Below are positions 9,797 through 63,750 of a stretch of DNA of 64,000 nt, in pieces. Position numbers and translations under genes: made by a program. Below the pieces are notes generated by a model, which did not search any database, was not told where the DNA came from, and was given only the letters and a program-made list of their open reading frames with translations. Positions within the stretch are counted from its first letter, which is position 1, and each line of letters begins with the position of its first letter. Origin of the DNA: Mytilus trossulus (Eukaryota); NCBI RefSeq assembly GCF_036588685.1, contig NC_086376.1, forward strand, positions 15,996,001-16,060,000, read 5' to 3'.

Positions 9797-11482
9797 AAGA
9801 GGGACGAAAGATACCAAAGGGACAGTCAAACTCATATATCGAAAATTTAGCCATGGCTTAAAATGAAAAAAAGAGAAACATACAAACAATAGTACACATG
9901 ACACCACATAGAAAACTAAAGAGTAAACAACACGAACTCCACCAAAAACTAGGGGTGATCTCAGGTGCTCGGGGAGGTAAGCAGATCCTGCTCTTTATTT
10001 GGCAACCGTCGTGTTGCTTATGTGATAACAAATCAGGTAAATAGTATAATTCGGTAGGTCACATTCGTGAAAGGGAAGAGGACTGTAGTTGCGACGTTAC
10101 CAACATATCCGATACAATTTGTGAAACGGTTATTCCATAACGATCAACCAACTGGCGTCCGTAAAATATACGAAGGGATGATTTCAACTTCACCATTTTG
10201 AACTCTTGGTTTAATAGCTTCCTTGTGAGCAGCAACCCATTATCAACAAAATTATGATAGAAAAAACAAGCACGGGATTATCGTATCAATTGGGAGATAC
10301 ATAATCCGTATGCAGGTGCTGCTGGAATGTTGCTACTTAGAAATGGAAAATTTACAATTGGAAAGCTGAAATCATCTCTTTTGTCGTAAAGTCTTGTTTT
10401 AAACCTACCCTCATTGTCAATTTCTAGATGTAAGTCAAGATATTAGCCGACTTAACTGTATTTGTAGTATCTTTTATCTCTAGTTCGATGGGATGGATGC
10501 GTTCCACGTAGTCACCAAATTTTGAATTGTTTAGTGAAAGAACGTCATCTATATAGCGGAAAGTAGAGTTAAAGGATATTGATAACTTCTTATCTTTCTT
10601 CCTAAGAAGTTCCTGCATGAAGTCAGCCTCATAATAATAAAGAAACAAGTCGGCAAGTAGAGGGGCACAGTTTGTTTCCATTGGGATGCCGACAGTCTGT
10701 TAAAAAACACGTTCTCCGAACGTAACAAATATGTTGTAAATAAAGAAATCAAGCATCTTGATAATATTGGTTTCAGAGAATTTTTTGTTTGAATCAGAGT
10801 GATTCTTTACAATGTAGGATTTATCCCTCCCTAAAACAAGATACTTGTATCTACGTTGGCCATTCTTTTTTATGAAGCAAAGTAATACCAACTCTTTCAA
10901 TTTGTCTTTTAGTTTGGAATGTGGAATACTTGTGTAAAGAGTAGAAAAGTCAAATGTTTTAACATTGTTACAAGATGAAAGAGAGTTGGATTGTATGTAC
11001 TCTAAAAGATCTTTGGAATTTTTAAGTATCCACATCTGAATCACGCCACCTCTAGAATAGGCAGTTTCACAATAAATTTGAAGCCCGTCTTTGATTTTTG
11101 ATAAAATAGATGTTAATAATTTAGAAAGAGGTTTCGTGGAGCACTTGGAAGACCCAGCAATATACCGTTGTTTGTAAGGACACTTATGTAATTTAGGTAT
11201 CCAATACAGTGATGGAAGATCCAGTTCTTCATCTTTGGTTGAGATACCTAAGAAACAAAGAACAGACCTATGCTTATCCAGGATTTCCTTTTTGGTAAGT
11301 GTCGTGAGGGTATATGTTGAGTTTCCAAGTGAATTGTCTATACCTAATTCGTTTATCAAGCAATTAATGTAATGACTTTTACAGACAAAAACGATGTTAT
11401 TTGGGGCTTTGTCTTCGGGGACAACAACATATTTATCATGGAGGTCGGATAGGTGTTTAGCAACATTTGGGTCTTTAAAGAT
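9797..11482 (-). mobile_element. 5'-truncated, disrupted Penelope-like (Naiad-type) retroelement, family B (RT plus 3' UTR)
   Basis: Minus-strand ORFs 10700-11545 and 10424-10681 give PLE RT motifs (LYWIPKLHK, TFDFSTLYT, GIPM.TNCAP, FRYIDD) with a stop at 10700 and a later frameshift. The 3' UTR ends ...ctttcgtccctcttt. Confidence 0.92.
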
Positions 11483-13034
11483 AGAACATTCACAAACGCA
11501 CAAACAAACAAATAATATAATAGTCGACACAACACTTACGAACAACCTCGATATATTTCATAATACATTGGTGTAACATATACTTGAAAGATAAATCAAA
11601 ACTAATTTCTTTAACTTGCCAAGAAATATAAAATGGTCAGTTGTACAAAAATGTATTAAGAATTGACATTAAACGTTCTGAAAATAAGATTGAAAATCAT
11701 TTTTTTCCCAGAAAGTCCAATGATTATTTTTTTTAAAAGTCGATATTTTGATGTCATGAATATTAGATTGAATTCTATATCAATGATTTAGAATAATCAC
11801 TGGGTAATAAAAATGAACTAATACTTTTCAGAGTTGTCTCTCCTTTGTTGACAATTCTTAAACAAACATGACATCATTATCTTTTCTGATTTCTTATTCG
11901 CTGAGCTTAGGATATGGCTAAACCCTTATAAACCTAACCAAATGCTCTTAAAGCATTTATATGATAAGAAAAGTTTTTTTTGTTTAATTTACGAAAAGAA
12001 AAAAAATCCTTTTGTTTATTTTTTAAACAAAACAGTATATATCAAAAGCAAAGAAATAAAATGAAAAGTCTAAATTTCGACCCATTGATCCTTATAAAAA
12101 CACATATTTCTATATTATTACTACAGCTTTGAATGGAAGAGGTGAACAATAGCTTGTGCGAAAACAAATTGCATCATTTGTGACGTCTTATTTTTTCTTC
12201 ATTTAAACTTCATTATTAATTCACTGTTATCATTTTTGAGTCTATAATTCGGGTAACTCATGGTTAGACAATGAGCCTAAAAGACGATCCAGTTCCGAAG
12301 AAGAAGGTGTGATCAAATTTATCTTTTCAGATTCCTCAGTTTTAAAAACACCTTTCAACGTAATTTTAGATAACTATTCATTATTCTTATAGATATCATT
12401 GACAATACTAGGAACTTCTGCTTGCATTTTTGTCAGTTAATTTCAGAACAAAAAAAATTGGAAAACTGCATTTGCCTCTGTCCTTTAAATGTAAGATTTC
12501 TTCGGGAAATTATAAGACAGATACACGCATTATTCAATCAGTTAATTATTTGTAACTCTTTATTACATAATAATACAGCATATTTAGATGAATTCTATTC
12601 TCGTTAATCATACGAATTGTAGCTTCCTTTTGCTTCGATGACAAATATATGAACAAAGAAGATGTATTTAACGCATTGGGTAATGTGTTTTACTACAGGC
12701 GGATCCGGAAGTTAAAAGCAGTGATTTCAATATATCATTTAGGAAAAGGAACAAAAACAATGATTTGAATAATTAATTTCGTTTTTTGAGTGACTTGCAG
12801 ATGATTTATATCGAATATTAATGGTTTTTCGAATAGTGCAATCTCACAGAATGTCTTTCAAACATTTTGTACATCATTAGATGGAATAGGCTTTCAAATG
12901 TTTGGTTTTTGGCGTTCCTGATGAAGGTTTACCCGGGAAGATTATTCGGACGTTTGAAATTCTTTTAACTTTTGTTCAGATATTTAATACATCAAACAAT
13001 ATTTGTTAAGGAATCATTTTAATTAATACACATA

Positions 13035-13460
13035 AAGAGTTCCAAATGGTGAAGTTGAAATCATCCCTTCGTAAATTTTACGGACACCATCACGAGTTGG
13101 TTGACCGTTATGGAATAACCGTTTCACAAATGATATCGGATATGTTCCTTACGTCGTAACTACAATCCCCTTCCCTTTCATGAATTTGACCTACCGAATT
13201 AGACTATTTACCGGATTTGTAATCACATAAGCAACACGACGGGTGCCGCATGTGGAGCAGGATCTGCTTACCCTTCCGGAGCACCTGAGATCACCCCTAG
13301 TTTTTGGTGGGGTTCGTGTTGCTTATTCTTTAGTTTTCTATGTTGTGTCATGTGTACTATTGTTTTTCTGTTTGTCTTTTTCATTTTCAGCCATGGCGTT
13401 GTCAGTTTGTTTTAGATTTACGAGTTTGACTGTCCCTTTGGTATCTTTCGTCCCTCTTTT
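13035..13460 (+). mobile_element. 3' terminal fragment of PLE family B
   Basis: Near-identical to 43772-44196 and to the reverse complement of 9797-10210. Confidence 0.9.
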
Positions 13461-20050: not shown

Positions 20051-21727
20051 TATAAAAAAAAACCCACATCAAAACAGCTGTCATATGTGGTAAATCTTTT
20101 TAGTCTAGAATCCTCTGTAATACAAACATGATTTGTAGGCGTTCGTTTCTATGTAAGTTGGCGTTTGTTTTTGTTGCACTTTAGTATCCCTGTCATTCCG
20201 TTTTTTCCTCTTAAAATGGATGTTATTCCCTCGATTTCGGTTTGTAAACCGGATTTGTTTTCTCTCAATTGATTTATGACTTTGAATACCGGTATACTAC
20301 TGTTGCCTTTATTTTGGAAAATCATTGCATAAATGTAATTAGCAATTGAACTGGAACTGGCATATTGAGAGGTAATTAATAAAGTTTCTGTAATTGACCT
20401 TCACTCTCATTTTCAGTTCTGTGGGATTTGGGTTCGGTTTTCAATGGAAAATGGTTGCAGTAATAATTAAAAAAAAGTTGACCGAGCCTTATTTCTTGAC
20501 TTTTATCTAGAAATTTCGCAATAAGGGTCGATTGAAAACAAAAGATTCCGACAAAATATGTGGTTTCGACTCGACATATTAAGAACTATTCTTTTTTATG
20601 TAGCAACATTCAAGCAGCACCAAGTGGTTTTTTCCTGAATTATTACAAATATTGTGACAAGTAAGAACATTGTTTTTTTTTATTGTCTACAGTTTCATCA
20701 ATACTTAATAGATTTAACTGATATAATTATTTCACAACGGAGTATTAGTATTCAGAATTGAGATGTACCTGTGCTTTTCATTTTATATCTATGAAAGAGT
20801 GAAAATGCATACACTTTTTTCAATTCTGTGCAAAATTGAGATAAAAAATTAAGGTTGCACATTCTGCGCTACATATTATAGTGTGGACAAAGTGCACTTC
20901 TGGCGTATTAAAATTTCAAACTTGTTGCCTTTTGTTGGCTGTTGTTCGTGTGATTCTTTGTCAATTGTGTTCTCCTATTATTTATATTGTAGTCCTGTGG
21001 TGTTGTGTTGTGATTTTGATGTTATGTTTCACATGGCCATAAAAGTGCGAGGTTTAGCATGCCACAAAACCAGCTTCAACCCACCATTTTTTCTTTAAAA
21101 AAAAATGCCCTGTACCAAGAATACGGCCATTGTTAAATTATAGTTCGTTTCTGTGTGTTTTACATTTTAACGTTGTGTCGTTTGTTTTCTCTTATTTTTT
21201 GTTTTTTGTCCATGGATTTATGAGTTTTGAACAGCGGTATACTACTGTTGCCTTTATTTAGCCATTTACTGGCTGTTATGTATGGCCTTTGAGGGTTTGA
21301 TATTTTTAATTTATCTTTTTATGTAACGTATACAAATGTCTGACGTCAGACACTCAAATAATCAATGTGTTCGTAGATAGGAGATGTTTATGTGTTCTGT
21401 TAAATTGTTCCTTTTAAAATTGTTATACGATGATGACTAATGTACTCACATTTTGACTATTTATTTATTTATTTATTTATTTATAGTGTCTGTATATTTA
21501 ACGCATTAATGTAAATATAACGGAATTTAATGAGACTGTCATGAAAGTGAGAGGGTTAGCGCTATAGAACCAGGTTTAATCATCCATTTTCTACATTTGA
21601 AAATGCCTGTACCAAGTCAGGAATATGACAGTTCTTGTCCATTCGTTTTTGATATGTTTTGTTATTTGATTTTGCCATGTGATTATGGACTTTCCGAATT
21701 GATTTTCCTCTAAGTTCAGTATTTTTT

Positions 21728-22790
21728 GAACTAGTTTGAATCTCGGTCTATTTCTGTAATTTATTCTTACATACTTTTGATTTTTTTAACTCTGTATGCG
21801 TACATTGCCTATGAAAAACAATTTTAAAATTGTTTGTATGCACATTGAACAACAAATTTATGTGACGTATATAATTTTTCTAACGTCAGACACTCAAATC
21901 AATCCATGTGTTCTTAGACAGTAGATGTTATTGTGTCCTGTTAAATTGTTCCCTTTAAAAAGTTTTGAATTCTCATATATTCTATGTATAATTTTTGGAC
22001 TAGTTTGAATCTCGGTCTATTTCTGTAATTTATTCTTACATACTTTTGATTTTTTAACCCTGTATGCGTACATTGCCTATGTACATTTTAAAATTGTTTG
22101 TATGCACATTGAACGACAAATTTATGTGACGTATATAACTTTTCTGACGTCGGACACTCAAGTAGATCCATGTGTTCGTGGATAGGTTTTTGTGTCCTGT
22201 TAAATTGTTCCTTTTAAAAGTTTTGGATTCTCATAAATTCTATGTATAACTTTTGGACTAGTTTGATTTCTGTAATTTATTCTTACATACCTTTGATTTT
22301 TTAACCCTGTCTGCGCTCATTGCCTATGTATAATTTAAAATTGTTTATAATCCAGGTACTTTTGATAACTATTGTATGCACATTGAACGACAAATTTATG
22401 TGACGTATATAATTTTTCTGACGTCAGACACTCAAATCAATCCATGTGTTCGTAGATAGTAGATGTTGTTGTGTCCTGTTAAATTGTTATACGATGATGA
22501 CTGATGTTCCCATATTTTGACTATTTTATTGATTGTGACTGTTTATTTAACGCATCATGTAAATGTAACGGAATTTGATGAGACTGTTATTAAAGTGAGA
22601 GGGTTAGCGCTATAGAACCAGGTTTAATCCACCATTTTCTACATTTGAAAATGCCTGTACCAAGTCAGGAATATGACAGTTCTTGTCCATTCGTTTTTGA
22701 TGCGTTTTGTTTTTTGATTTTGCCATGTGATTATGGACTTTCCAAATTGATTTTCCTCTGAGTTCAGTATTTTTGTGATTTTACTTTTTA
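21728..22790 (+). repeat. 5' pseudo-LTR (three ~260-270 bp internal units plus 3' terminal segment)
   Basis: Units begin gaactagtttga/ggactagtttga at ~21728, ~21997 and ~22255. The terminal segment is essentially identical to 26588-27120. Confidence 0.9.
22583..22680 (+). ncRNA. Candidate twister-like (P5-permuted) structured RNA in the pseudo-LTR; copies at ~21535-21632, ~26913-27010 and ~58157-58255(-)
   Basis: TAA-TCC-AC-[CATTTTC/GAAAATG]-CCTG-TACCAAGT-CAGG enclosed by ACTGTTAT/ATGACAGT. Resembles the twister UAA..GC..GCCGGUCCCAAGCCCGG core. The P1/P2 region is non-canonical. Confidence 0.45.
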
Positions 22791-22876
22791 CTACAACCAA
22801 GTCGATGTCAAGTTTCTTCCTAGAAGAAACTTTACTGCTGGTGGATTATTCCCCGAGGGCATCATTAACTTGGTAG
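22789..22876 (+). promoter_or_regulatory. Conserved structured 5' leader shared with retrozyme monomers
   Basis: accaagt/acttggt, gatgtc/ggcatc and gga/tcc nested stems plus an extra aagtttcttc/gaagaaactt hairpin. Homologous to 7774-7840 and to the reverse complements of 17134-17198 and 17497-17560. Confidence 0.65.
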
Positions 22877-22884
22877 CTTTATGC

Positions 22885-25800
22885 ATGATGATTACAAAAT
22901 ATACGAAGAACAAACCGGCTGGGACGTCGCCCGGGTTACCAAGGTCCTCTTTTGCTGCACGGAACACTGTAGCATTTGATTTGTGTGTTACACGGAATAT
23001 CCTCCGGGATACCCCTGATTTGACTTATGTTCAGCCAGAAGGTAATTATTATTTCAAAAATTCAGATACCTTTCATAAATTAAAGCCATGCTGCGTCAAT
23101 GTTTTCGACTGTTTAAATACACCTGCTACAAGTGAATCAACACCTATCATTTCTTCTTGTAAACATAAAAAAGGAAAAAGGAGTACGTGTAAGACTTGTG
23201 ATATGTTAATCACGACTCCTGATTTTACTAGTAATTTAACATCTAAAACATATTATACTAAATCTTTTGAGCCTCTGGACTGTTCCACGGACAATGTCGT
23301 GTACGGAATCGAATGTACTTTGTGTGGACTTCTTTATGTTGGTGAAACTCGTCAAACTTTGCGTAAAAGAATGAATCAACACCGGTCTGATAATAAAGAT
23401 CCTCAATTTAGGGTTCTTTATAACCATTTTAATCAACCGGACCATGATCCTTCTTTTTCTATGAAAGTACGCATCATTGAGAAAATTTATCACCACACAA
23501 ATAGCCCTGTACTAAGTACTCCCTTCCGCAAAGATAGAGAAAATTATTGGATAAGGGAGTTAGGGACTGCAATGCCATATGGTTGCAATGACAATATTAA
23601 AGGAGTAGGAAATTTGTCAAGTCCTGCCTGCAGTGATGTTAATGTAATGGGTTTATTTAATACTACCTTACGACAACAACGTAGTCATGGGCAAAAACAT
23701 TACCATCGGCCTAATGTAAAAAAGTCTTCCAAATCTAGATCACCATCTGGGAGCTTTGATGACCTTCTTTCACATCTTCATCATCCACTAAGGTTACATT
23801 ACATAAGAACTATTCTATTTTCACTGCCAGTTAATTTTCTTAAACGTTTGAGAGATTATGCACTTGACAAAGGAGGCACCAATACATTTTCTGCAATATA
23901 CAGACTAGTCAGTATTATTTGTGATGTAGCTCTTTTCCGTCTTTTCAAACCAGTAAGATCTGAACCTTTACATGAAGAAAAGAGGAGATTCCTTCCTGTT
24001 GATTTTGCCAATAGAGGAATCGATGCAATCAATATCTGCAACGTTCTACATCACAAGGAGGTAACATCTAAAATTCCTATTTATTTTCAAAATCAGTCTG
24101 TTCCTATTGTATCCTACAGTTACACCAAAACCATTGCACCTTAAATATTTAACTTTAAACAGGCATTGCAGGACCTTGACTTAGAACAATACCTTAAAAA
24201 CCCTCAGACATGTGACTGTTCCCACTCGCCTTATAATTACAGCCCCTCTGGTCATGTTATAACTGGGGATCTAAATATAATTCAACATGAAAATCTCCGA
24301 AAGGTGATTTCTCATGGTCCTAAGTTTAGAGAACCCCAACACATCAATTGGAACCATAACTTCAAAATAATTATGGATTCTATTGAGGACTACGCCAGAG
24401 CATGGGCTAAGCGAGAAGAAGTTGAACTGGACACTTTGTCAGAATGGGTTAAAACTATCAGGTCTCTGATAAAACGTCGCATTCACAAGTTGAAAAACTG
24501 TGTGAACGATCGACCAAAGTCCGTTTTCAGAGACAAAGAGGTCATGAAATGTCTATCAACTCTTCATGATAAGTATGTTGTTGTTCCTGCGGACAAAGCT
24601 TCAAATAATATTGTCTTTGTATGTAAATCGTATTACTACGAATGTCTTGTAAAAGAATTGGATATAACGGAGCACTCAGGTAATCCCACATACAAAGACA
24701 TATCATTTGACAAGGATGAGATTTTAGCAAATCATAAGTCCTTCATGGCATCAATAAACATTACATTGAACACCAAATCGGAGGACTTACCTTGTTTGTA
24801 TTGGATACCAAAGCTTCATAAAATTCCGTACAAACAACGGTATATTGCTGGCTTATCTTCGTGTTCCACTAAAGAATTGTCTATTAGATTGACTAAAATT
24901 CTGTCCGCAGTGAAAGAGGGTCTTCAGAAATACTGTGAAACTGTTTACTCGCGTAGTGGTATTAACCATATGTGGATTCTTAAAAATTCTAAAGAACTTC
25001 TAGACAATTTCAAATCTCGGTCTCTTTCTGAAATAAGTTCCATCAAAACTTTTGATTTTTCAACCCTGTATACCACCATTCCCCATGTAAAATTGAAAAA
25101 TCGCCTAAAAGAAATTATCCACAATGCCTTTCAACATAAAAATGGTAGCATACGCTATAAATTTATTACTTTGGGATTTCATAAAGCATATTTCGTTAAT
25201 AGTGACAAACAAAAAGGTAAATCATGCTACACAGAAGAACAAGTAGTCAGTATGCTGGAGTTTCTTATCGACAACATATTTGTTGAGTTTGGAGGTAGAC
25301 TTTTCCAACAAGTTGTCGGCATTCCTATGGGAACAAACTGTGCGCCTCTTCTTGCCGACCTCTTCTTATTTTCATATGAATCGGAGTTCCTCCAGACACT
25401 TGTCAAAAACAAGAGGATCAAAGAAGCCAGATTATTTAATTTCACTTTCAGATATATTGATGATGTTCTTTCCTTAAACAATCCGAACTTTTCTGATTGG
25501 GTTCCATTAATATATCCCCCAGAACTCGAGATTAAAGAAACAACAGACACGGCTTCCTCCGCCTCATTTTTAGACTTATATCTCGAATTTGACTTACACA
25601 GTCATCTCAGTACCAGAATCTATGACAAACGAGACGATTTTAATTTCGAAATTATAAATTTCCCCCACCTTAGTAGCAATATACCAACTTCACCTGCATA
25701 TGGGATATATATTTCCCAACTTATTCGATATTCAAGAGCTTGCAGCTCCTACTCAGACTTTGTAAAACGTCATCAGTGTCTGAGTAGAAAGTTGATGAAC

Positions 25801-25923
25801 CAGGGGTATGTCAAAGAACGTCTCGTCCTTTTTCTAAAAAAGTTCATCGGAAGGTACCAAGACCTTGTTGATAAATATTCCGTATCAACTTCTCAAATAA
25901 TACACGATGGTCTTGATGTATAG
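22885..25923 (+). CDS. Naiad-type PLE polyprotein (Zn-finger/GIY-YIG endonuclease plus reverse transcriptase), interrupted by one in-frame TAA at 24142-24144
   Basis: ORFs 22870-24144 and 24166-25923 are in the same frame (offset 1296 nt). Motifs: CKTC, NVVYGIECTLCGLLYVGET..LRKRMNQH, RE.YWI..L, CDC..GHVITGDL, DFSTLYT, GIPMGTNCAP, RYIDD. First ATG at 22885. Confidence 0.93.
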
Positions 25924-26324
25924 ATTCTGCGTACTGATGTTGTGTATCATCTTAACAACATGTTTTATTGTTCTTTTATTTGTTTTTGTTCTATAATTAA
26001 GATTACTTTTACTGTTGAATGGTTTTATGTGATATCCGTTTGACGTGGCTCGGTACTTATACATCTCGTCAATGTGTTTGTATTGGCTTTCATTTTTTTG
26101 GTGATTTGTTTTGTATATGTGACTCTTTGTATTTCTTTTGTGCTTATAACGTGACTCTGTACTTTAAAAGATCCCGTCAGTATGATATTTGTCTATAATA
26201 TGTCATTATGATATATTTCTATTATGAATTACTATATACGTTGAACCACAAACGTCAAAATCAATCAATGGCGTAGTGGAATTGACAATTTTTGGATTCT
26301 CACTAATTCTATGTATAACTTTTG

Positions 26325-27140
26325 AACTAGTTTGAATCTCGGTCTATTTCTGTAATTTATTCTTACATACTTTTGATTTTTTTAACTCTGTATGCGTACA
26401 TTGCCTATGAAAAACAATTTTAAAATTGTTTGTATGCACATTGAACAACAAATTTATGTGACGTATATAACTTTTCTGACGTCGGACACTCAAGTAGATC
26501 CATGTGTTCGTGGATAGGTTTTTGTGTCCTGTTAAATTGTTCCTTTTAAAAGTTTTGGATTCTCATAAATTCTATGTATAACTTTTGGACTAGTTTGATT
26601 TCTGTAATTTATTCTTACATACTTTTGATTTTTTAACCCTGTCTGCGCTCATTGCCTATGTATAATTTAAAATTGTTTATAATCCAGGTACTTTTGATAA
26701 CTATTGTATGCACATTGAACGACAAATTTATGTGACGTATATCATTTTTCTGACGTCAGACACTCAAATCAATTCATGTGTTCGTAGATAGTAGATGTTG
26801 TTGTGTCCTGTTAAATTGTTATACGATGATGACTGATGTTCCCATATTTTGACTATTTTATTGATTGTGACTGTTTATTTAACGCATCATGTAAATGTAA
26901 CGGAATTTGATGAGACTGTTATTAAAGTGAGAGGGTTAGCGCTATAGAACCAGGTTTAATCCACCATTTTCTACATTTGAAAATGCCTGTACCAAGTCAG
27001 GAATATGACAGTTCTTGTCCATTCGTTTTTGATGCGTTTTGTTTTTTGATTTTGCCATGTGATTATGGACTTTCCAAATTGATTTTCCTCTGAGTTCAGT
27101 ATTTTTGTGATTTTACTTTTTTTTTGTGATTTTACTTTTT
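26325..27140 (+). repeat. 3' pseudo-LTR (two internal units plus terminal segment)
   Basis: Direct repeat of 21728-22790 lacking one internal unit. Ends ...ttttgtgattttactttt, with the last ~20 nt duplicated. Confidence 0.9.
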
Positions 27141-30950: not shown

Positions 30951-32446
30951 GTATGACACGGTGTATATTATGAGGTGCCAAATAATAATAACAATTTAAT
31001 TGGGATGTTTGTATAAAAAAAGTCGTAAGATACCCCATGAATATTGGGACGCATCAATCAAAAACAAACAAAGACATTGCAAAAAATTGAAAACTACCAA
31101 AATGACTAACAATATGCAAAACACAATTTAGAAAACCAAATGCTAAGCAACACGAATCGCATGTAAATGTTATTTGCAATTATCTTATGCAAAACTTGAC
31201 ATGATGTCTTGCTGTGACGGTTAGGTTTAAGCCATATTGTTGGTTCTGTGTGTTGATTTGTGTTGGTGCTGCCAACTAGGTTTGACAACTGGGTGAAAGG
31301 TTAATCTAGCTTTAAAATCAGGTTTAATCTTCAATTTTCAGGAATAAATGTCTATACCAAGTCGGGAATATAGCAGTCGTTAACTGTAAGCATTTGCTGT
31401 TGTAAGTTTTTATGTTCTCCTCCAATTTAAATATGCCATGGAGTTCGTTATATGTTTACATACTCACTGTGTCTAACCTACCGCGGCAGAAAATTATTGG
31501 ACTCAATAGTATATAATATCTGTTACGGTGATGGATCGTCAGAGGTGTCGCTAGTTATCTAACAAACTGTAGGATCAAATAACGAAAGAGGGTCTTGGGG
31601 CGGCTCAAGGCCCCCAGCAGGTTCAGGAAAATGGTTTTCAGCGTTTTAATTGCAAAATTTTGTGTTGGTCAAGTCAAGTTTTCTAACTCTTAGTTAATGT
31701 TAATGTTATGAACTTGTTCATGGCAGTACCGATTTCTAATATGTCTAAAGTAATATACATATATAATCAATTTAAATGGGGTATATAATTAACCTATCTC
31801 TCTAATGGCGCAACCTTTCATGTAGACATGATTTGAATGTATGAGTTCTTTTATCATTCGTGTCGAGTTTCTATGGACAATAGTTTAAATACATGTGATT
31901 TGGTAATCACTTGATAAATCATAAAAATGTAAAGCTGCCTCATATCTCGACAGACATCTATGGCAGGGGTTTCCACATGATTTGCTTGATAAACGGTTGC
32001 TGCTCACAAGGTAAAGTTTTAAGTGATGAAGGTGAAATAATACCTTCGTTTATCTTACGGACTTTATTGAATATTCGATTTACAAATGACAACAGATATG
32101 TTCCAATTGTCGTAACTACAATCCCGTCTCTTGTTCTTTGAATTTGACCTCTTAAAATATCACCGAGTTTGAACTTACATGAGCAAAACAGTTGGTGAAA
32201 AATGTGGAGCAGAATCTGCTTAACCTTTAGAAGGAACTTTTTAATCACCCCTTCTTTTTGATGAGGTTCGTGCTGCAAAGTCTTTAGCTTTATATGTTGT
32301 GTTTTTGTGTAGTGTGGTTTGTCTATTAATTTGTTTGTGTGTCTGTTGGTATTTTAATTAGCCATTGTCTTTTCATGACAACTTGTTTATCATTGTCTCT
32401 TTGGTGTATTTCGCTTTTCGTTTACTTATTTCACTAGCGGAACATG

Positions 32447-34468
32447 TATGTTTGAAAGCTAAATCTATTCAGGGAGGAGGTATTGTTATTTTGATTAAAA
32501 AATGTTTTTCTGCTGTTATTGATATTGAAACTTGTATTTCAGACTCTATTGTATGGTTGAATATTAAGCAGGGTATATTAACCAAAGACAAATCTGTATA
32601 CATTGCTTGTATTTATATTCCTCCAGTTAAATCTAAATACTATAAGTTATATGATTGTGATTTATACAATGAGTTAGAAAATAGCATTGAGTTATACTCT
32701 GAACTTGGTCACGTTTTTATTCTTGGGGATTTGAATGGTCGAACTGGGACGTTAGTCGATTTTGTGGAAAAGGATGATATTCATTTTACCGTAAAGAACC
32801 AAATTTGTGGCGCTTTTGAATATTTAGCCGATAGCGTTCTCCCGAAAAGAGTCAATCCTGATTTAAATACAAACAGTTATGGATCTAAAATAATTAGTAT
32901 GTGTAAATCCTCAGGCTTAAGGATAGTGAATGGTAGGCACAAAAACGGATTTTCAAATGACTTTACATATTGTGGCCCTATTGGTATGAGCGTTCTGGAT
33001 TACTTCATTGTACCTTCGTTTTATTTCCCGAATATAAACCAGTAAATTGTATAAAACTTTACAACTTATTCGGACCATGCATTTTTACATTTAGAACTGA
33101 ATCTATTTAACACCATGCGAAACCCAGGCAAATGCTCAGATTCCATGGAAGATACAGAACGTCGAATTAAATACAAATGGAAAGATCAATTTAAAGAACA
33201 GTGTACTGAGTGTATTCGTATCAATATGGACAATATCATTCGTTTACAGAACCGTATAAACTTTGAAAATCAAACTTCTTTTGATAAATCGCTGAGCAAT
33301 TTTACATGTATGATAGAAGACATTATGTCGCCTTTCTTTAAAACGATGCCTTATGTTAACAATAAGCCGTATAAACCAGATAATTATTTCGACAAACCTT
33401 GGAAATTGTCAGAACAAGGTAGAAAAGCAATGTTTGCTTTAAGAAAAAATGTGAAAAGTATGTGTTTAAACTATGTAACTTTGTTATCCCTGTTTGATAC
33501 CTATATAAATTCTTTATTGAGTTATGCAAGCGAAATATGGGGTGCACATAAAGCCCCTGCAATAGAGAGAGTCCACATGAACTATTGTAAAAATATACTT
33601 GGTGTTAAGTTGTCTACTAACAATGTAATGATATATCAAGAACTAGGTAGATTGCCTCTTATTTTCGCAAAAAAATGTAAGATTTTCAAATATAGGTTTA
33701 AATTGCTAAATACTTCAAACTGTATATTGAAAAATTGTTATAACTACTTATATTGTGAATTAGAGAGATGTCCAAATAATAAGTGTAACTGGCTGTATTT
33801 TATAAAGAACGAACTTCTTCTTATTGGTTTAGGTGATGTATGGTATAACCAAAACTTTGTGACTTACCTGATGTATATTTTGCTGTCATAAATCAACGTT
33901 TGTACGATTGTCTAAAACAAGAACTTGATGCTCAGTTGTATATGTCTCCAAAATGTTCTAATTATAAATATATGTTAGATAATTTTTGTCTGCAATTTTA
34001 TTTATGCAAACCAATTTCAAATGTTTACAAAAAAATGTATTACAAAAATAAGATTAAGTAGCCACAACTTAGCTATAGAAAATGGAAGATTTAATGGTAT
34101 AGCAAGAAATAATAGAATATGTACTTTTTGTAAAAATGATATAGAAGATGAGTTTCATTTCATCCTCAAATGTCCACGTTTTCAAGGTTTTAGAACAATT
34201 TATATTAAGCCATTTTATTGGAAAAAACCGTCGATGTACACATTTATTAAACTGATGAGTACTAATAATGTAAAAGAATTGTGTAATTTAGGTAAATTTA
34301 TATTTAGATCTTTTAAGCTTAGATCCGAAATGTTAAAATAATGTTTGTTTATTCTACAACACCTTCTGCTGTCACATTGTCTGTGTTTATGTATGTATTA
34401 TATGTATTATTGATGTTGATATAATTGTATACCTATAGTTTATATAGACTTTGGTAATAAAGATAGAT
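32447..34468 (+). mobile_element. Non-LTR retrotransposon (LINE, RTE-X/CR1-like) relic: APE endonuclease plus C-terminal Zn-knuckle, RT deleted
   Basis: IYIPP, GDLNGRTG, NSYG, SVLDY and SDH endonuclease motifs. C-terminal RLSSHNLAIENGR..R.CTFC..IEDEFHFILKC. AATAAA near 34456. Absent from the paralogous block at ~29948. Confidence 0.85.
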
Positions 34469-47849: not shown

Positions 47850-49260
47850 TTTTATATTTTTTGCAAACATAAGTTATACATCTATATTAATTACATAGAC
47901 AGAGTTTGCGTATAAAATGTTAATAACATTCTACAGTAAATAAAAAGATACACTACAATCTACAGAATAATATACCTTGACTTATAATTTACATTTAATT
48001 TTTTGTACTTTTAACACCTGGATAACATTGTAATGTGTCGGTCAGTGATTTAATAGGTCACATGCTCGACATTGTAAATATTTGTATTTTATATTTCTAT
48101 TGTTGGATGTATTATGTTCTAAAAAGGAAAGAAGGTAAGTACAAATTAATAAACCACTTACTAAGATTTATTATTAGTTTGATTTCAGATGCAAACTTTT
48201 CTTTTTTTGAAGATAATGATTTATCCATAATTTCAATTAAACTGCCCAGTTCCCGTTTTGCATAATGATATCAATTGACAGGAAGTAAAACTTTTAGACT
48301 GAAACTTGATTACATTCCTACATTTCCCAAAAATCCATTTAACTGTATTCATAATCGTATCAGTTATGACATTGTACGTTTTGTTGTAATCGTACATTCC
48401 TAGTATGATAAGTGTTTCGCTCAATGGAATATATACTGTGTTATTAAGTACATTAAAGTTTTTAAGTCCATCAAAAATATATTCCCAAACAACCAGTTTA
48501 ATGTTACAGCTGTGAAAAAGGTGTGTGAGAGTTTCGTTTTCTGTTTTACAAAAATGACATTTGCCATTATTTGATCTGCTGATTCTAAATAGTTTTTGCT
48601 CCGTATAGATAATGTTATGAACAATTTTCCAGCTAATTTGATTTGCATTCCGAGAGAACATACTTTTATTTGAATTTATCCAGATCTTTTTCCACGGTTA
48701 TTCCGAATTATACTGAATATACCGTTTTATTTGACAGTTTGGAATTATATCTAAATTAATCGAATATTGGATTAATTTCAAAATTATTTACTTGTGATTA
48801 CTACTTTATTCTGTTTATCGTAGAATTCAAATGTATTTTTAATGTAATTACCATGTTGGTGGGGGGGGGGGGGGGATCAACGTGGACAATTTTTAGTCTG
48901 TCCTCGAACATTTTTGGAATAGCTAATTTCAGCCTTGTCCGCTCCGAAATCAAGTTTCTTTTTATCTTTTTGAATATTTTATATAAAGTTGTCGCTTTTG
49001 ATATTTTTCGTTTCTTCATCCCAAATATCTTTTATTGTATGAATTCCATTTTTTCCGAAGTTAGCGAAAAATAGGTTTTTTGTTGTATTGAATTTTTATG
49101 TTTCTAATTGTTGGTTTAGGATATCGGGTTTATTTATTGGACTTTGTATACTTAAAATATTTTACCACGTTTTAATTAAATCAAAGTAGTATTTTGGAAT
49201 ATTTTTCATTTGTAATCCTCGTAAATTCGAACACTTTGCTAAAGGATATAAAGAACTAAA
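47850..49260 (-). mobile_element. L1/Tx1-like LINE 3' relic (zf-RVT domain)
   Basis: ORF 48233-48661(-): WKIVHNIIYT..L....KCHFCKTENETLTHLFHSC...VW, the CCHC zf-RVT of L1/Tx1 ORF2. Boundaries approximate. Confidence 0.75.
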
Positions 49261-60958: not shown

Positions 60959-63750
60959 TAGTGCGGTGACTGAAGGCAGATTTTTTAAAATTTAATCTCC
61001 CCACCGAACACACACCTATATAATATATCATTGGAAAGAGGAAATCCTGTACTATAATAATATGCCTGTCGTCAGGACTTGATATGGTCACATATTTTTC
61101 AAATTGAGGTCAAAGCTTTTATGTGAAAATCTGTGAAACTTTGACTTTCAATTTTGACATTTTTTTCTATTTCTAAACTCTACCTTAATACAAAAGATAC
61201 TGTTTTGGCTTTAGTAATGTTTGTTATTATACATTAATCTTAATCATTGAGTAAGACAATTGACTCTCCAAATGAGACCAAATGAGACATAAATTAACAA
61301 TTATAGGTCCCGTACAGGCTTCAACAATGACTTAAAGATATACTGCATAGTCTTCAATTCCCGAAATGAATAATGTTAAACAAACGAAAAATCTAACGGC
61401 CTGATTAATGTACAAAATAACTAAGAAAAAAACAAATATAGTATATAGAAACAAACGACAAACACTCCATTACCGTCTCGTGACTTGAAACAGACACATA
61501 CAAAATGTGGCGGGGTTTAACTTTTTTAAGGGCGCGCCTGCACTCTCCTAACCTGGGGGCTGGGACTGTGTGTACCAGTGCAAAAAGCTTTATACCAAAT
61601 CAACCGTTATCTCCATCATCTTCATTTTCACCAACTGTCCCAAAACATGCTTTGATATTTCTACACATTTCACTCATGGCCACAGGTCTGCACATGAAAG
61701 GTTCTGCTCAAAGCAAACACGTTATTTTGAGTTTTTCTTTACAAGTACAGACAAGGTATTGTAGGAAGTCCAAAGACATTTGTTCCTTAAAAAAATACCA
61801 GCTTCAAACCATCCCTATCAATTGATTAGAGATTTAACAGAGATATAAAAGGAGGTTTTGGAAGTTGCTGTGACATCCATATGCTTGTCTGCAAAGATGC
61901 TGGGGAAACATTATACGAGACGTACACACTATCTTGAATTCGCTCGATTTCATGGCTGGCAACACATTAGATAGCATAGCACTTAACTTAAAGAAGAAGC
62001 ATAAAATCCATTGGCATTCAAAGTTTAAACAAGGTGTTTTGAACCAAACTCATGGTACATTTGTGATGCCAATACTAAATGAAAAGGAGTAAAAAATAAA
62101 TGGCCACACAAACGATTGACTCAACAATTGATTAGCATTTACGCAATTTATCTGGTGCCATTTCCTGAGAATAGTCTTGGCTGTATGCAGTTTCATCGAG
62201 TAACCATAAAATGAATGGTTATAAATACGAAGGCATTGACTGAATATTGAAGAAGGAAGAGACAATTCATTCGAAGTTGGGTATTCTTCTGAAAAGTTTC
62301 AATGTCTTTTTTAAGTATACTTACAGCGGAATGAAATATCTGTCCGTTATTTGTATCTTTTACAGTTCACATTGAAATTTCGAGGTCAGTTTTCAATTGA
62401 CGAGCAGCTGATATGGCATCTCAAATAGTTATTTTGCTACTAAATATCATGTTATGTTTGCCTTGAACTTGTTGAAGTTGTTTAACAACTGAATTTCTAT
62501 AAAAATCAAATGATAAAATTGAGAAAGGAAATGGTGAATGTGTCAAAGCGACAACAACCCGACCAAAGTCCACTTTTTTTTTGTCTATCTGATGAGTTAA
62601 GCCTTTTCCAACTGATTTTTATAGTTCCTTCTTATGTTGTACTGTTATACCACTGTCCAAGGTTAGGGGAGGGTTGGGATCCCGCTAACATGTTTAACCA
62701 CGCTACATAAGTTATGTATGTGCCTGTCCCAAATCAGGAGCCTGTATTTCAGTAGTTGTCGTTTGTTTATGTGTTACATATTTGTTTTCGTTCATTTTTT
62801 TACATAAATAAGGCCGGTAGTTTTCTCATTTGAATTATTTTACATTGTCTTATCGGGGCCTTTTATAGCTGACTATATGCGATATGGGCTTTGCTCATTG
62901 TTGAAGGCCGTACGGTGACCTATAGTTGTAAATGTTTGTGTCATTTTGGTCTTTTGTGGATAGTTGTCTCATTGTCAATCATACCACATCTTCTTTTTTA
63001 CATAGAGCAGACAACTGCCGAAATGAGTTAAGACTACATTTTACAAGTAGAATATTTTTAAATTCGAATCAGCCGGAAGGAAAGATCTATATTTATCAAT
63101 TAACGGTGTCATGAGGAATTACCATTAAATTGTTGTCAATAGCCAAAATAAAATTATTAAAAGCAGTATCGTGATCTGAGATATCTGCCTCCACGTGTTT
63201 GGATTTTATTTTTTGTTCGTTTTTAGCAAAGAATGTGTAATGCAATCAAAATGACAGAGCGCTTGACGTTTAAAAGATGGACGGGAAACTATTTTAACTT
63301 TATCTGACAGGGATTAAACATTCTTACTATGCTCATCTGATTCAAACTTTTTGTATCTTTCTGAAATATTTTGTTGCAACAAAATACAAGCGCTACAGAT
63401 GAACGACTGAATTCTAGAACGCGTACAAATACCCGAAACTGACGTACACCAGTCCGATAATTGTTTATCGTCATTAAATATAAGAGATTAGCAGCTTCCT
63501 CGCTCTTGAAAGGGGGGAACCAATATGTTTACTTGTTTTACTTTTGTATCATGATTGAACGATGATAAACTGCCTGCACAGAGTTCTTCAAATTAGCAGC
63601 TATCGCATGGAATATCTTGATGTTCACCTCATCCAATCTTTTAGTCAATGCAGATACAAAAATCGACTTCCCTATACTGGTAAATTAACTTAAAATTTCA
63701 GTCGATTATTTTTAAGCACTGCCTAAAATATAACGACTTTTGTCTTTTCT
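60959..63750 (-). mobile_element. Third degenerate Academ-like element, interrupted by short repeats
   Basis: Terminus TAGTGCGGTGAC..., with a subterminal atatatcattgga and gaggtcaaag layout like 57845. Decayed minus-strand coding remnants such as FADKHMDVTATSKTSF near 61850-61900. The far boundary is uncertain. Confidence 0.45.
62572..63000 (+). repeat. Short interspersed repeat (related copies at ~1-165, 27230-27335, 41880-42120, 61250-61560) containing a twister-like core at 62660-62743
   Basis: Ends ...gaaggccgtacggtgacctatagttg...caatcataccacatcttcttttt, shared with the other copies in either orientation. Confidence 0.75.

Follow-up and report, generated by a model that had tools for sequence, protein, structure and literature searches.

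A twister-type module in the 3' end of a Naiad retroelement

The DNA analysed here, called the window, is a 64,000-nucleotide stretch of the Mytilus trossulus genome (contig NC_086376.1), which is AT-rich and measures 1.3 Gb. It holds Naiad Penelope-like elements, abbreviated below as PLEs, several of which carry a twister-type module in their 3' untranslated region or pseudo-LTR (pLTR). The features are as follows.

21960 to 27121, plus strand: near-full-length Naiad of family F4, with modules in both pLTRs (22577-22680 and 26909-27012)
61263 to 61557, minus strand: decayed Naiad tail, with its module part at 61471-61556; P4, T1 and the cut site are broken
about 62566 to 63000, plus strand: 5'-truncated 3' end (3' UTR/pLTR) of a Naiad of family F1
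62659 to 62744, plus strand: twister-type module in type-P5 order, damaged in this copy
62660 to 62664, plus strand: 5' strand of P5 (partner 62739-62743); all six P5 pairs show two-sided changes between families
62665 to 62668, plus strand: 3' strand of P2 (partner 62698-62701); two of four pairs survive in this copy
62669 to 62673, plus strand: 3' strand of L1, GAGGG, with the predicted general-base G at 62669 and a conserved A at 62670
62671 to 62673, plus strand: T1 strand (partner 62728-62730)
62676 to 62683, plus strand: palindrome 1, in the place of P1; a palindrome of 8-10 nt in all 11 family representatives
62687 to 62694, plus strand: palindrome 2, in the place of P1; found in all 11 representatives
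62695 to 62697, plus strand: U^AA, where cleavage is predicted after position 62695; the predicted general-acid A is 62696
62698 to 62701, plus strand: 5' strand of P2
62702 to 62703, plus strand: 5' strand of T2, GC (partner 62733-62734); one pair broken in this copy
62704 to 62722, plus strand: P3 with its closing pair; five of five pairs show two-sided changes
62723 to 62738, plus strand: P4 (62723-62726 with 62735-62738) and loop L4 (62727-62734); P4 is invariant in the 11 representatives
62739 to 62743, plus strand: 3' strand of P5

A sequence-only reading of the window had picked out a twister-like layout at 62660-62743 on the plus strand, and the letters that it named are present as described. 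It had placed them in an abundant short repeat, which turns out to be a Naiad 3' end cut short on its 5' side. The insertion measures 435 nt and is 93.7% identical to a long F1 copy, and the older repeat around it has an empty site in 16 of 24 related loci, with the two bases CA on both sides. From a genome search, which gave 2,658 candidates, 40 were scored and 30 loci taken; copies at 28 of these 30 share a 3' end about 305 nt past the motif, and their 5' ends vary (by eye). Upstream of the module, long copies encode a Penelope-type reverse transcriptase (RT) with DKA, GxKY and CxC motifs and an N-terminal GIY-YIG domain. This endonuclease lies N-terminal to the RT in families F1, F2, F3 and F4. 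Counts of upstream RTs are biased by the choice of loci and include duplicates. GIY-YIG, CxC, GxKF/Y and DKA are the diagnostic marks of Naiads (PMC8557442), and the last three, with DKA replacing DKG, are all present; CxC has TGA for its first Cys codon in F1 and F3. We also saw Naiad-style 5' truncation among the copies, and partial tandems that give pLTRs. Domain order, diagnostic motifs, truncation and partial tandems are thus shared with the Naiad clade of Craig et al. (2021; PMC8557442), and the host of the module is a Naiad Penelope-like retroelement. A tRNA-derived SINE was rejected as the host, since tRNA is absent from the window and an RT gene stands upstream in long copies. A hammerhead considered at CTGATGAG (62590) was likewise rejected, as its GAAA partner was not found by eye.

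The minus-strand tail at 61263-61557 had been taken for a reverse copy of the same repeat. The letters named in it are kept, but with about 70% identity it belongs to a separate, decayed lineage. Upstream RTs were found in none of 26 copies of that lineage, a count affected by biased locus choice and by duplicates among the loci. The DNA flanking the tail is common to all 24 relatives, and the tail is a passenger of the older repeat that surrounds the F1 insertion, a larger unit running from about 60955 to beyond 63100. This repeat is interspersed, is 85-93% alike in the 24 relatives and carries two old Naiad fragments. Further retroelement ORF fragments lie at 10703-11557 (minus), 32362-33888 (plus) and 48236-48697 (minus); one is a Naiad RT and two are LINE-like.

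Families, copy number and tandem elements

Clustering of 290 of 314 profile matches gave six groups with at least 21 members and many singles. Families F2 and F3 are young, all 40 of the best 40 scored matches being identical across about 300 nt, and one 32-nt word of F2 occurs 5,011 times in the genome (control, 0). We counted 59 core-spanning copies in 1,004,000 bases, a sample of 91 spaced stretches, the window and 30 kb beside it that was chosen without regard to the motif; this extrapolates to about 76,000 copies genome-wide. As had been suspected from the window, several repeat families share the module, which we found in 11 representatives of about eight lineages. Six pairs of families (F1/F2, F2/F3, F1/F4, F2/F4, F3/F4 and F4/F5) are alike at or around the module and unlike elsewhere in the tail. 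The association of F5 with an RT is putative because some RT matches of F4, F5 and F7 are neighbouring elements. A search among viral contigs found no relatives.

In tandem elements, two modules lie on the same strand at a distance of about 4.0-4.3 kb, and full F2 elements carry the module in both pLTRs at a spacing of 4,015-4,017 nt. The F4 element in the window has an 830-nt direct repeat (97.7% identity). Its ORF (22762-25923), with one premature TAA, encodes an N-terminal GIY-YIG domain (Pfam E 5.7e-8) and a C-terminal RT. The plus-strand stretch 21318-27121 holds three tandem twister modules (21530, 22577 and 26909), and an F5 tail lies at 20912-21260.

Two F2 ORFs (L274, 3223-6231; L275, 3010-6018) contain four in-frame TGA codons each, at Cys-type positions that are equal in both, and an F3 ORF (L276, 4303-6489) contains at least two. 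SECIS_1 matches of 28-33 bits (cut-off 35) lie upstream of the twister in F2 and F3 copies. Judging from these sequences, F2 and F3 of this mussel are likely to be selenoprotein Naiads. In-frame TGA together with a SECIS-like hairpin is seen in F1-F3, a combination listed in the available text of PMC8557442 only for clam and spider Naiads.

Covariation across families supports a type-P5 twister fold

The alignment, made with MAFFT, comprised the 11 family representatives (about eight lineages) but neither the decayed family nor the window copy. Over these rows 91.3% of the type-P5 twister structure is paired, and 14 of its 24 pairs show two-sided changes. This level was reached by none of 500 shuffles, a control that ignores relatedness, and slid controls gave 29-44%. 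The P5-permuted order read from the window copy is therefore borne out, as is the pairing on which that reading had staked itself, which is present at 86% in P2, 97% in T1 and 100% in T2. In T1, 32 of 33 cells are paired and two of three pairs change on both sides (G-C to A-U and G-C to U-A), the outer pair in F4b being a G-A mismatch. The difference between CCC/GGG and ACC/GGT copies that had been noticed in the window is thus a real T1 change across families. T2 is paired in 22 of 22 cells, as G-U, A-U or G-C plus C-G, with one-sided changes only among the 11. One P2 pair changes from G-C to A-U, and P5 is 83% paired. The closing pair of P3 changes from C-G to U-A between families, and the family register of this helix is C-ACAT/ATGT-G, which replaces the TACATA/TATGTA first proposed. 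P4 is 100% paired, but is uninformative on covariation because it is invariant among the representatives.

Twister activity depends on the A that follows the cut and on the G of L1, and is sensitive to T2 mismatches (PMC5408937, PMC11662667). In all 11 representatives we found the catalytic A and the next A, the L1 G that is the predicted general base and the A that follows it, the closing G-C of P4 and the U and A of L4; both As of the T1 A-A are also invariant. The position of the cut was assigned by analogy to twister. In a motif-anchored parse [U/C]AA stands there in 11 of 11, and MAFFT displaces the AA by one column in three rows that have a 3-nt P2 strand.

Other tools were less favourable to the fold. 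RNAalifold, which ignores pseudoknots, favours pairing of the L1 strand with the 5' strand of P2; F3 breaks a pair of that helix and keeps T1. Single-sequence fold z-scores are weak (F1, +0.73; F3, -0.64). A loose descriptor gave nine matches per 200,000 shuffled strand-bases and is unspecific, so the case rests on covariation across families. Rfam gave no match of any kind in the window at its cut-off, and no twister at E values up to 10 in 61000-63200. The comparison with Rfam twister-P5 that had been suggested went against the module, in that both the window copy and intact copies stayed below the cut-off. Neither RF02684 nor RF03160 reached the gathering cut-off in the window, in intact copies or in the genome, where the best 79 of 26,711 candidates were scored for RF02684; three weak matches among those scored are other repeats with P1-type letters. 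The Rfam twister-P1 model gave 23.0 and 20.3 bits (E 0.69 and 4.1) on two relatives, against a cut-off of 67.2. Separately, other repeats of this genome (loci L171-L173, at about position 1500) contain type-P1-like twister cores with rice-type P4/L4 letters, below the Rfam cut-off; these are perhaps RTE 5' ends.

On this comparative evidence, the twister fold is almost certainly real. The module probably works like a type-P5 twister and is a candidate ribozyme. It is not a canonical twister because P1 is absent and the Rfam cut-off is not reached. The sequence-only reading, which had called it closer to canonical, was right on its main points but missed that P1 is lacking, that two palindromes stand in its place and that Rfam twister-P5 does not score the module.

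The window copy differs from an intact copy by G>A at 62733, C>A at 62700 (in P2), C>T at 62704 and C>A at 62659. The first of these breaks one T2 pair and was seen in none of 24 gap-free copies, which were chosen on the RT gene; all 27 core positions are kept in 7 of 24 gap-free F1 copies. In a single-sequence fold the window copy forms neither P2 nor P5, whereas the minimum-energy structure of an intact F1 copy consists of P5, P2, P3 and P4, which agrees with the earlier expectation of a better fit in the family than in this copy. Because its T2 and P2 are broken, the window copy is likely inactive, and RNA made from it is unlikely to cut itself.

Two palindromes take the place of P1

The canonical P1 has zero to two of four pairs in all 11 representatives, and its first pair is never formed. 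In its place lies a segment of 21-24 nt which, in 11 of 11, contains two self-complementary words; compared with shuffles, each sequence gives p ≤ 0.0033 for their joint occurrence. In palindrome 1, pairing reaches 96% and four of five pairs show two-sided changes, the central letters included. Palindrome 2 is 83% paired in the MAFFT register, in which the aligner shifts odd-length forms. The letters at the palindrome centre are complementary in all ten rows that have letters there, with four pair types. Because these central letters are adjacent in sequence, they are unable to pair within one strand. That self-complementarity is held despite letter changes, even at the centre, points to pairing between two copies. 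Predicted homodimers have energies of -12.5 to -20.1 kcal/mol, as against 0 to -1.5 for the lone segment. From these patterns it is probable, with good confidence, that the palindromes pair between copies.

We also sampled folds of lone modules. In each of the 11 the core was free in at most 0.8% of the samples (run without a known-twister control), and blocking both palindromes moved the chance of a free core from at most 0.008 to 0.001-0.50, a weak test that likewise had no known-twister control. We lean slightly towards the view that palindrome pairing is needed for efficient cutting.

The module in other Naiads, and a second conserved fold

The supplement of PMC8557442 has 54 consensus records, and for 49 of them we inspected the final ~420 letters by eye. 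The twister fold is present in 8 of these 49 published Naiad tails, from a ctenophore, cnidarians and bivalves. Mnemiopsis, Morbakka-1, Mytilus galloprovincialis, Gigantidas, Modiolus, Sinonovacula and Mercenaria have the whole module and Clytia-4 its 3' half. F4 and the published Naiad_Mgal agree in their tails. On visual reading, the ctenophore, cubozoan, mussel and clam tails add two-sided changes in T1, T2, P2, P4 and P5. Among them are T1 forms UCG/CGA and GUG/CAC, a middle T1 pair changed in two tails, T2 as CC/GG in two clam tails, and several forms of P4. The outer T1 pair is U-U in three tails, and one tail has rice-type P4/L4 letters.

In 63 metagenome loci found by an RT-only search, the module lay downstream in 8, a different fold in 24, both in none and neither in 31. 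The eight module-bearing loci are among the 12 closest, the remaining four of which have less than 240 nt downstream. The different fold is a second conserved 3'-UTR fold of other Naiads, with a palindrome that varies between families and a likely pseudoknot (24 loci among L327-L372). It occurs in the window at 13266, 39094 and 44002 (plus) and 60303 (minus), has 29 matches in the 1.004-Mb sample and was seen by eye in ten published Naiad tails. Rfam gave no match in the five loci tested. We regard this second fold as a candidate for an undescribed ribozyme. At the 3' end of several nematode and coral Naiad tails we saw, by eye, hammerhead-like cores whose stems are unusually long; some of these cores had already been flagged by the authors (PMC8557442).

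A model of self-cutting in palindrome-joined pairs

Our main reading, to which we give a probability of roughly 55%, is that the 3' pLTR of Naiads carries a twister-like module whose intact copies cut at N^A, favoured when two of them are joined by their palindromes. Self-cleavage of their own RNA by intact copies is, considered separately and from sequence, very probable. Transcription of a tandem unit would bring two modules together. Each palindrome would then pair with its counterpart in the other module (1 with 1, 2 with 2), and the L1 strands would thereby become free for T1 and the active site. If both modules cut, the product would be a unit-length RNA that ends in a 5'-OH and a cyclic phosphate and still has the SECIS-like hairpin downstream of its ORF; it could serve for translation or be closed into a circle by ligation. 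In host transcripts, lone fragments would stay mostly uncut, and uncut or re-ligated RNA would be the source of new insertions.

Ends at the predicted cut were sought in RNA and in genomic copies. For F2, four RNA runs, of each of which 6-18% was read, showed no pile of ends at the cut, and none of the eight piles listed on the F4 element of the window lay there. Of 30 young F2 copies, two pairs of which look like duplicates, none begins within 10 nt of the predicted cut, and 28 extend across it. The 1.004-Mb sample gave no clear pile of 5' ends at the cut, a comparison confounded by subfamily divergence. These blanks do not separate the explanations considered here because the Poseidon_Ac hammerhead, which is dispensable for insertion in vitro, likewise leaves no read ends in RNA-seq (PMC11167929).

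The strongest competitor is a P1-less twister that cuts as a monomer. Its palindromes would join two element RNAs for another purpose, bringing the two pLTRs or two RNPs together so that ligation or reverse transcription can follow, and would have no part in gating the cut. P1 is conserved in the twister class, but twister lacking it cuts at a near wild-type rate, so that it is dispensable for activity (PMC5408937), and flaws in P1 are tolerated (PMC11662667); as twisters without P1 act on their own, gating by the palindromes would not be a necessity. A PLE protein is also predicted to be a dimer (PMC11167929), a point in favour of this account. However, the weak test above predicts that lone modules occlude either the T1 strand or the cut site, the roughly 76,000 module-spanning fragments are transcribed on both strands with no ends visible, and the palindromes adjoin the active site on both sides. 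We consider the monomer account unlikely, though far from negligible.

Much less probable is a twister-derived fold that serves as a binding site for the Naiad protein, with silent or protein-dependent catalysis. The missing RNA and genomic ends would fit such a site, as would the Poseidon_Ac hammerhead, which cut only in the presence of protein (PMC11167929). Against it, almost all paired bases vary between ctenophore and clams, yet the catalytic A, the A that follows it and the general-base G stay the same, and the Poseidon_Ac hammerhead is a true ribozyme that is without read ends too. A chance likeness in the GC-rich part of an abundant repeat, or a different fold such as that of RNAalifold, could draw on the silence of Rfam, the weak z-scores and the naming of the structure from the same sequences, but is very improbable and largely refuted by covariation, given the two-sided changes in T1, P3, its closing pair and P5, the F3 copies that break the RNAalifold helix and keep T1, and the fit of published tails from outside the naming set, including the one with rice-type letters.

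Relation to known ribozymes and implications

The module shares with type-P5 twister (RF02684, clan CL00120) its strand order, P2-P5, T1, T2, the L1 and L4 letters and the N^A site (PMC5408937, PMC11662667). It differs in having two palindromes instead of P1 and G-U or A-U at one T2 pair, in scoring below every Rfam twister cut-off, and in sitting in the 3' end of an animal retroelement. Minimal hammerheads of PLEs are located in pLTRs, have a palindromic loop and act as dimers (PMC6765202). They and Poseidon_Ac (PMC11167929) occupy the same place in the pLTR, have a palindrome in the helix next to the cut and are likewise without read ends at the cut, whereas the Naiad module is of an unrelated ribozyme class and has two palindromes rather than one. 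The T-variants of Schistosoma Perere-3 RTE are also retrotransposon-borne twisters with a weak or absent P1, which occupy the 5' end of an RTE LINE, marking the boundary of its insertion (PMC8501958). Unlike these, the Naiad module is of type P5, lies in a PLE 3' UTR and has copies that continue through the cut site. In the open literature searched we found no twister in a PLE or Naiad, and a 2026 retrozyme preprint does not mention twister. The available text of PMC8557442 records the absence of canonical hammerheads from Naiads, names no other ribozyme and does not remark on the module. Some Naiad loci may be among the bivalve twister candidates in the supplement of PMC11662667.

Naiads dominate many invertebrate genomes, and their thriving without a hammerhead was taken to question the importance of the ribozyme (PMC8557442). 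A twister at the hammerhead's place, with palindromes that pair, would suggest that the element needs a paired self-cutting RNA of whatever class. We tentatively propose, at somewhat less than even odds, that the module is the first natural obligate symmetric twister dimer, with parallel palindromic duplexes for P1 and tandem-only cutting from ctenophores to clams, and that three or more RNA folds replace one another here among Naiads, namely twister, stretched hammerheads and a palindrome-bearing fold that is undescribed and would constitute a new ribozyme class. The module offers a new and testable candidate twister architecture at tens of thousands of loci missed by Rfam. It also directs attention to the second, undescribed fold that other Naiads have in this position.
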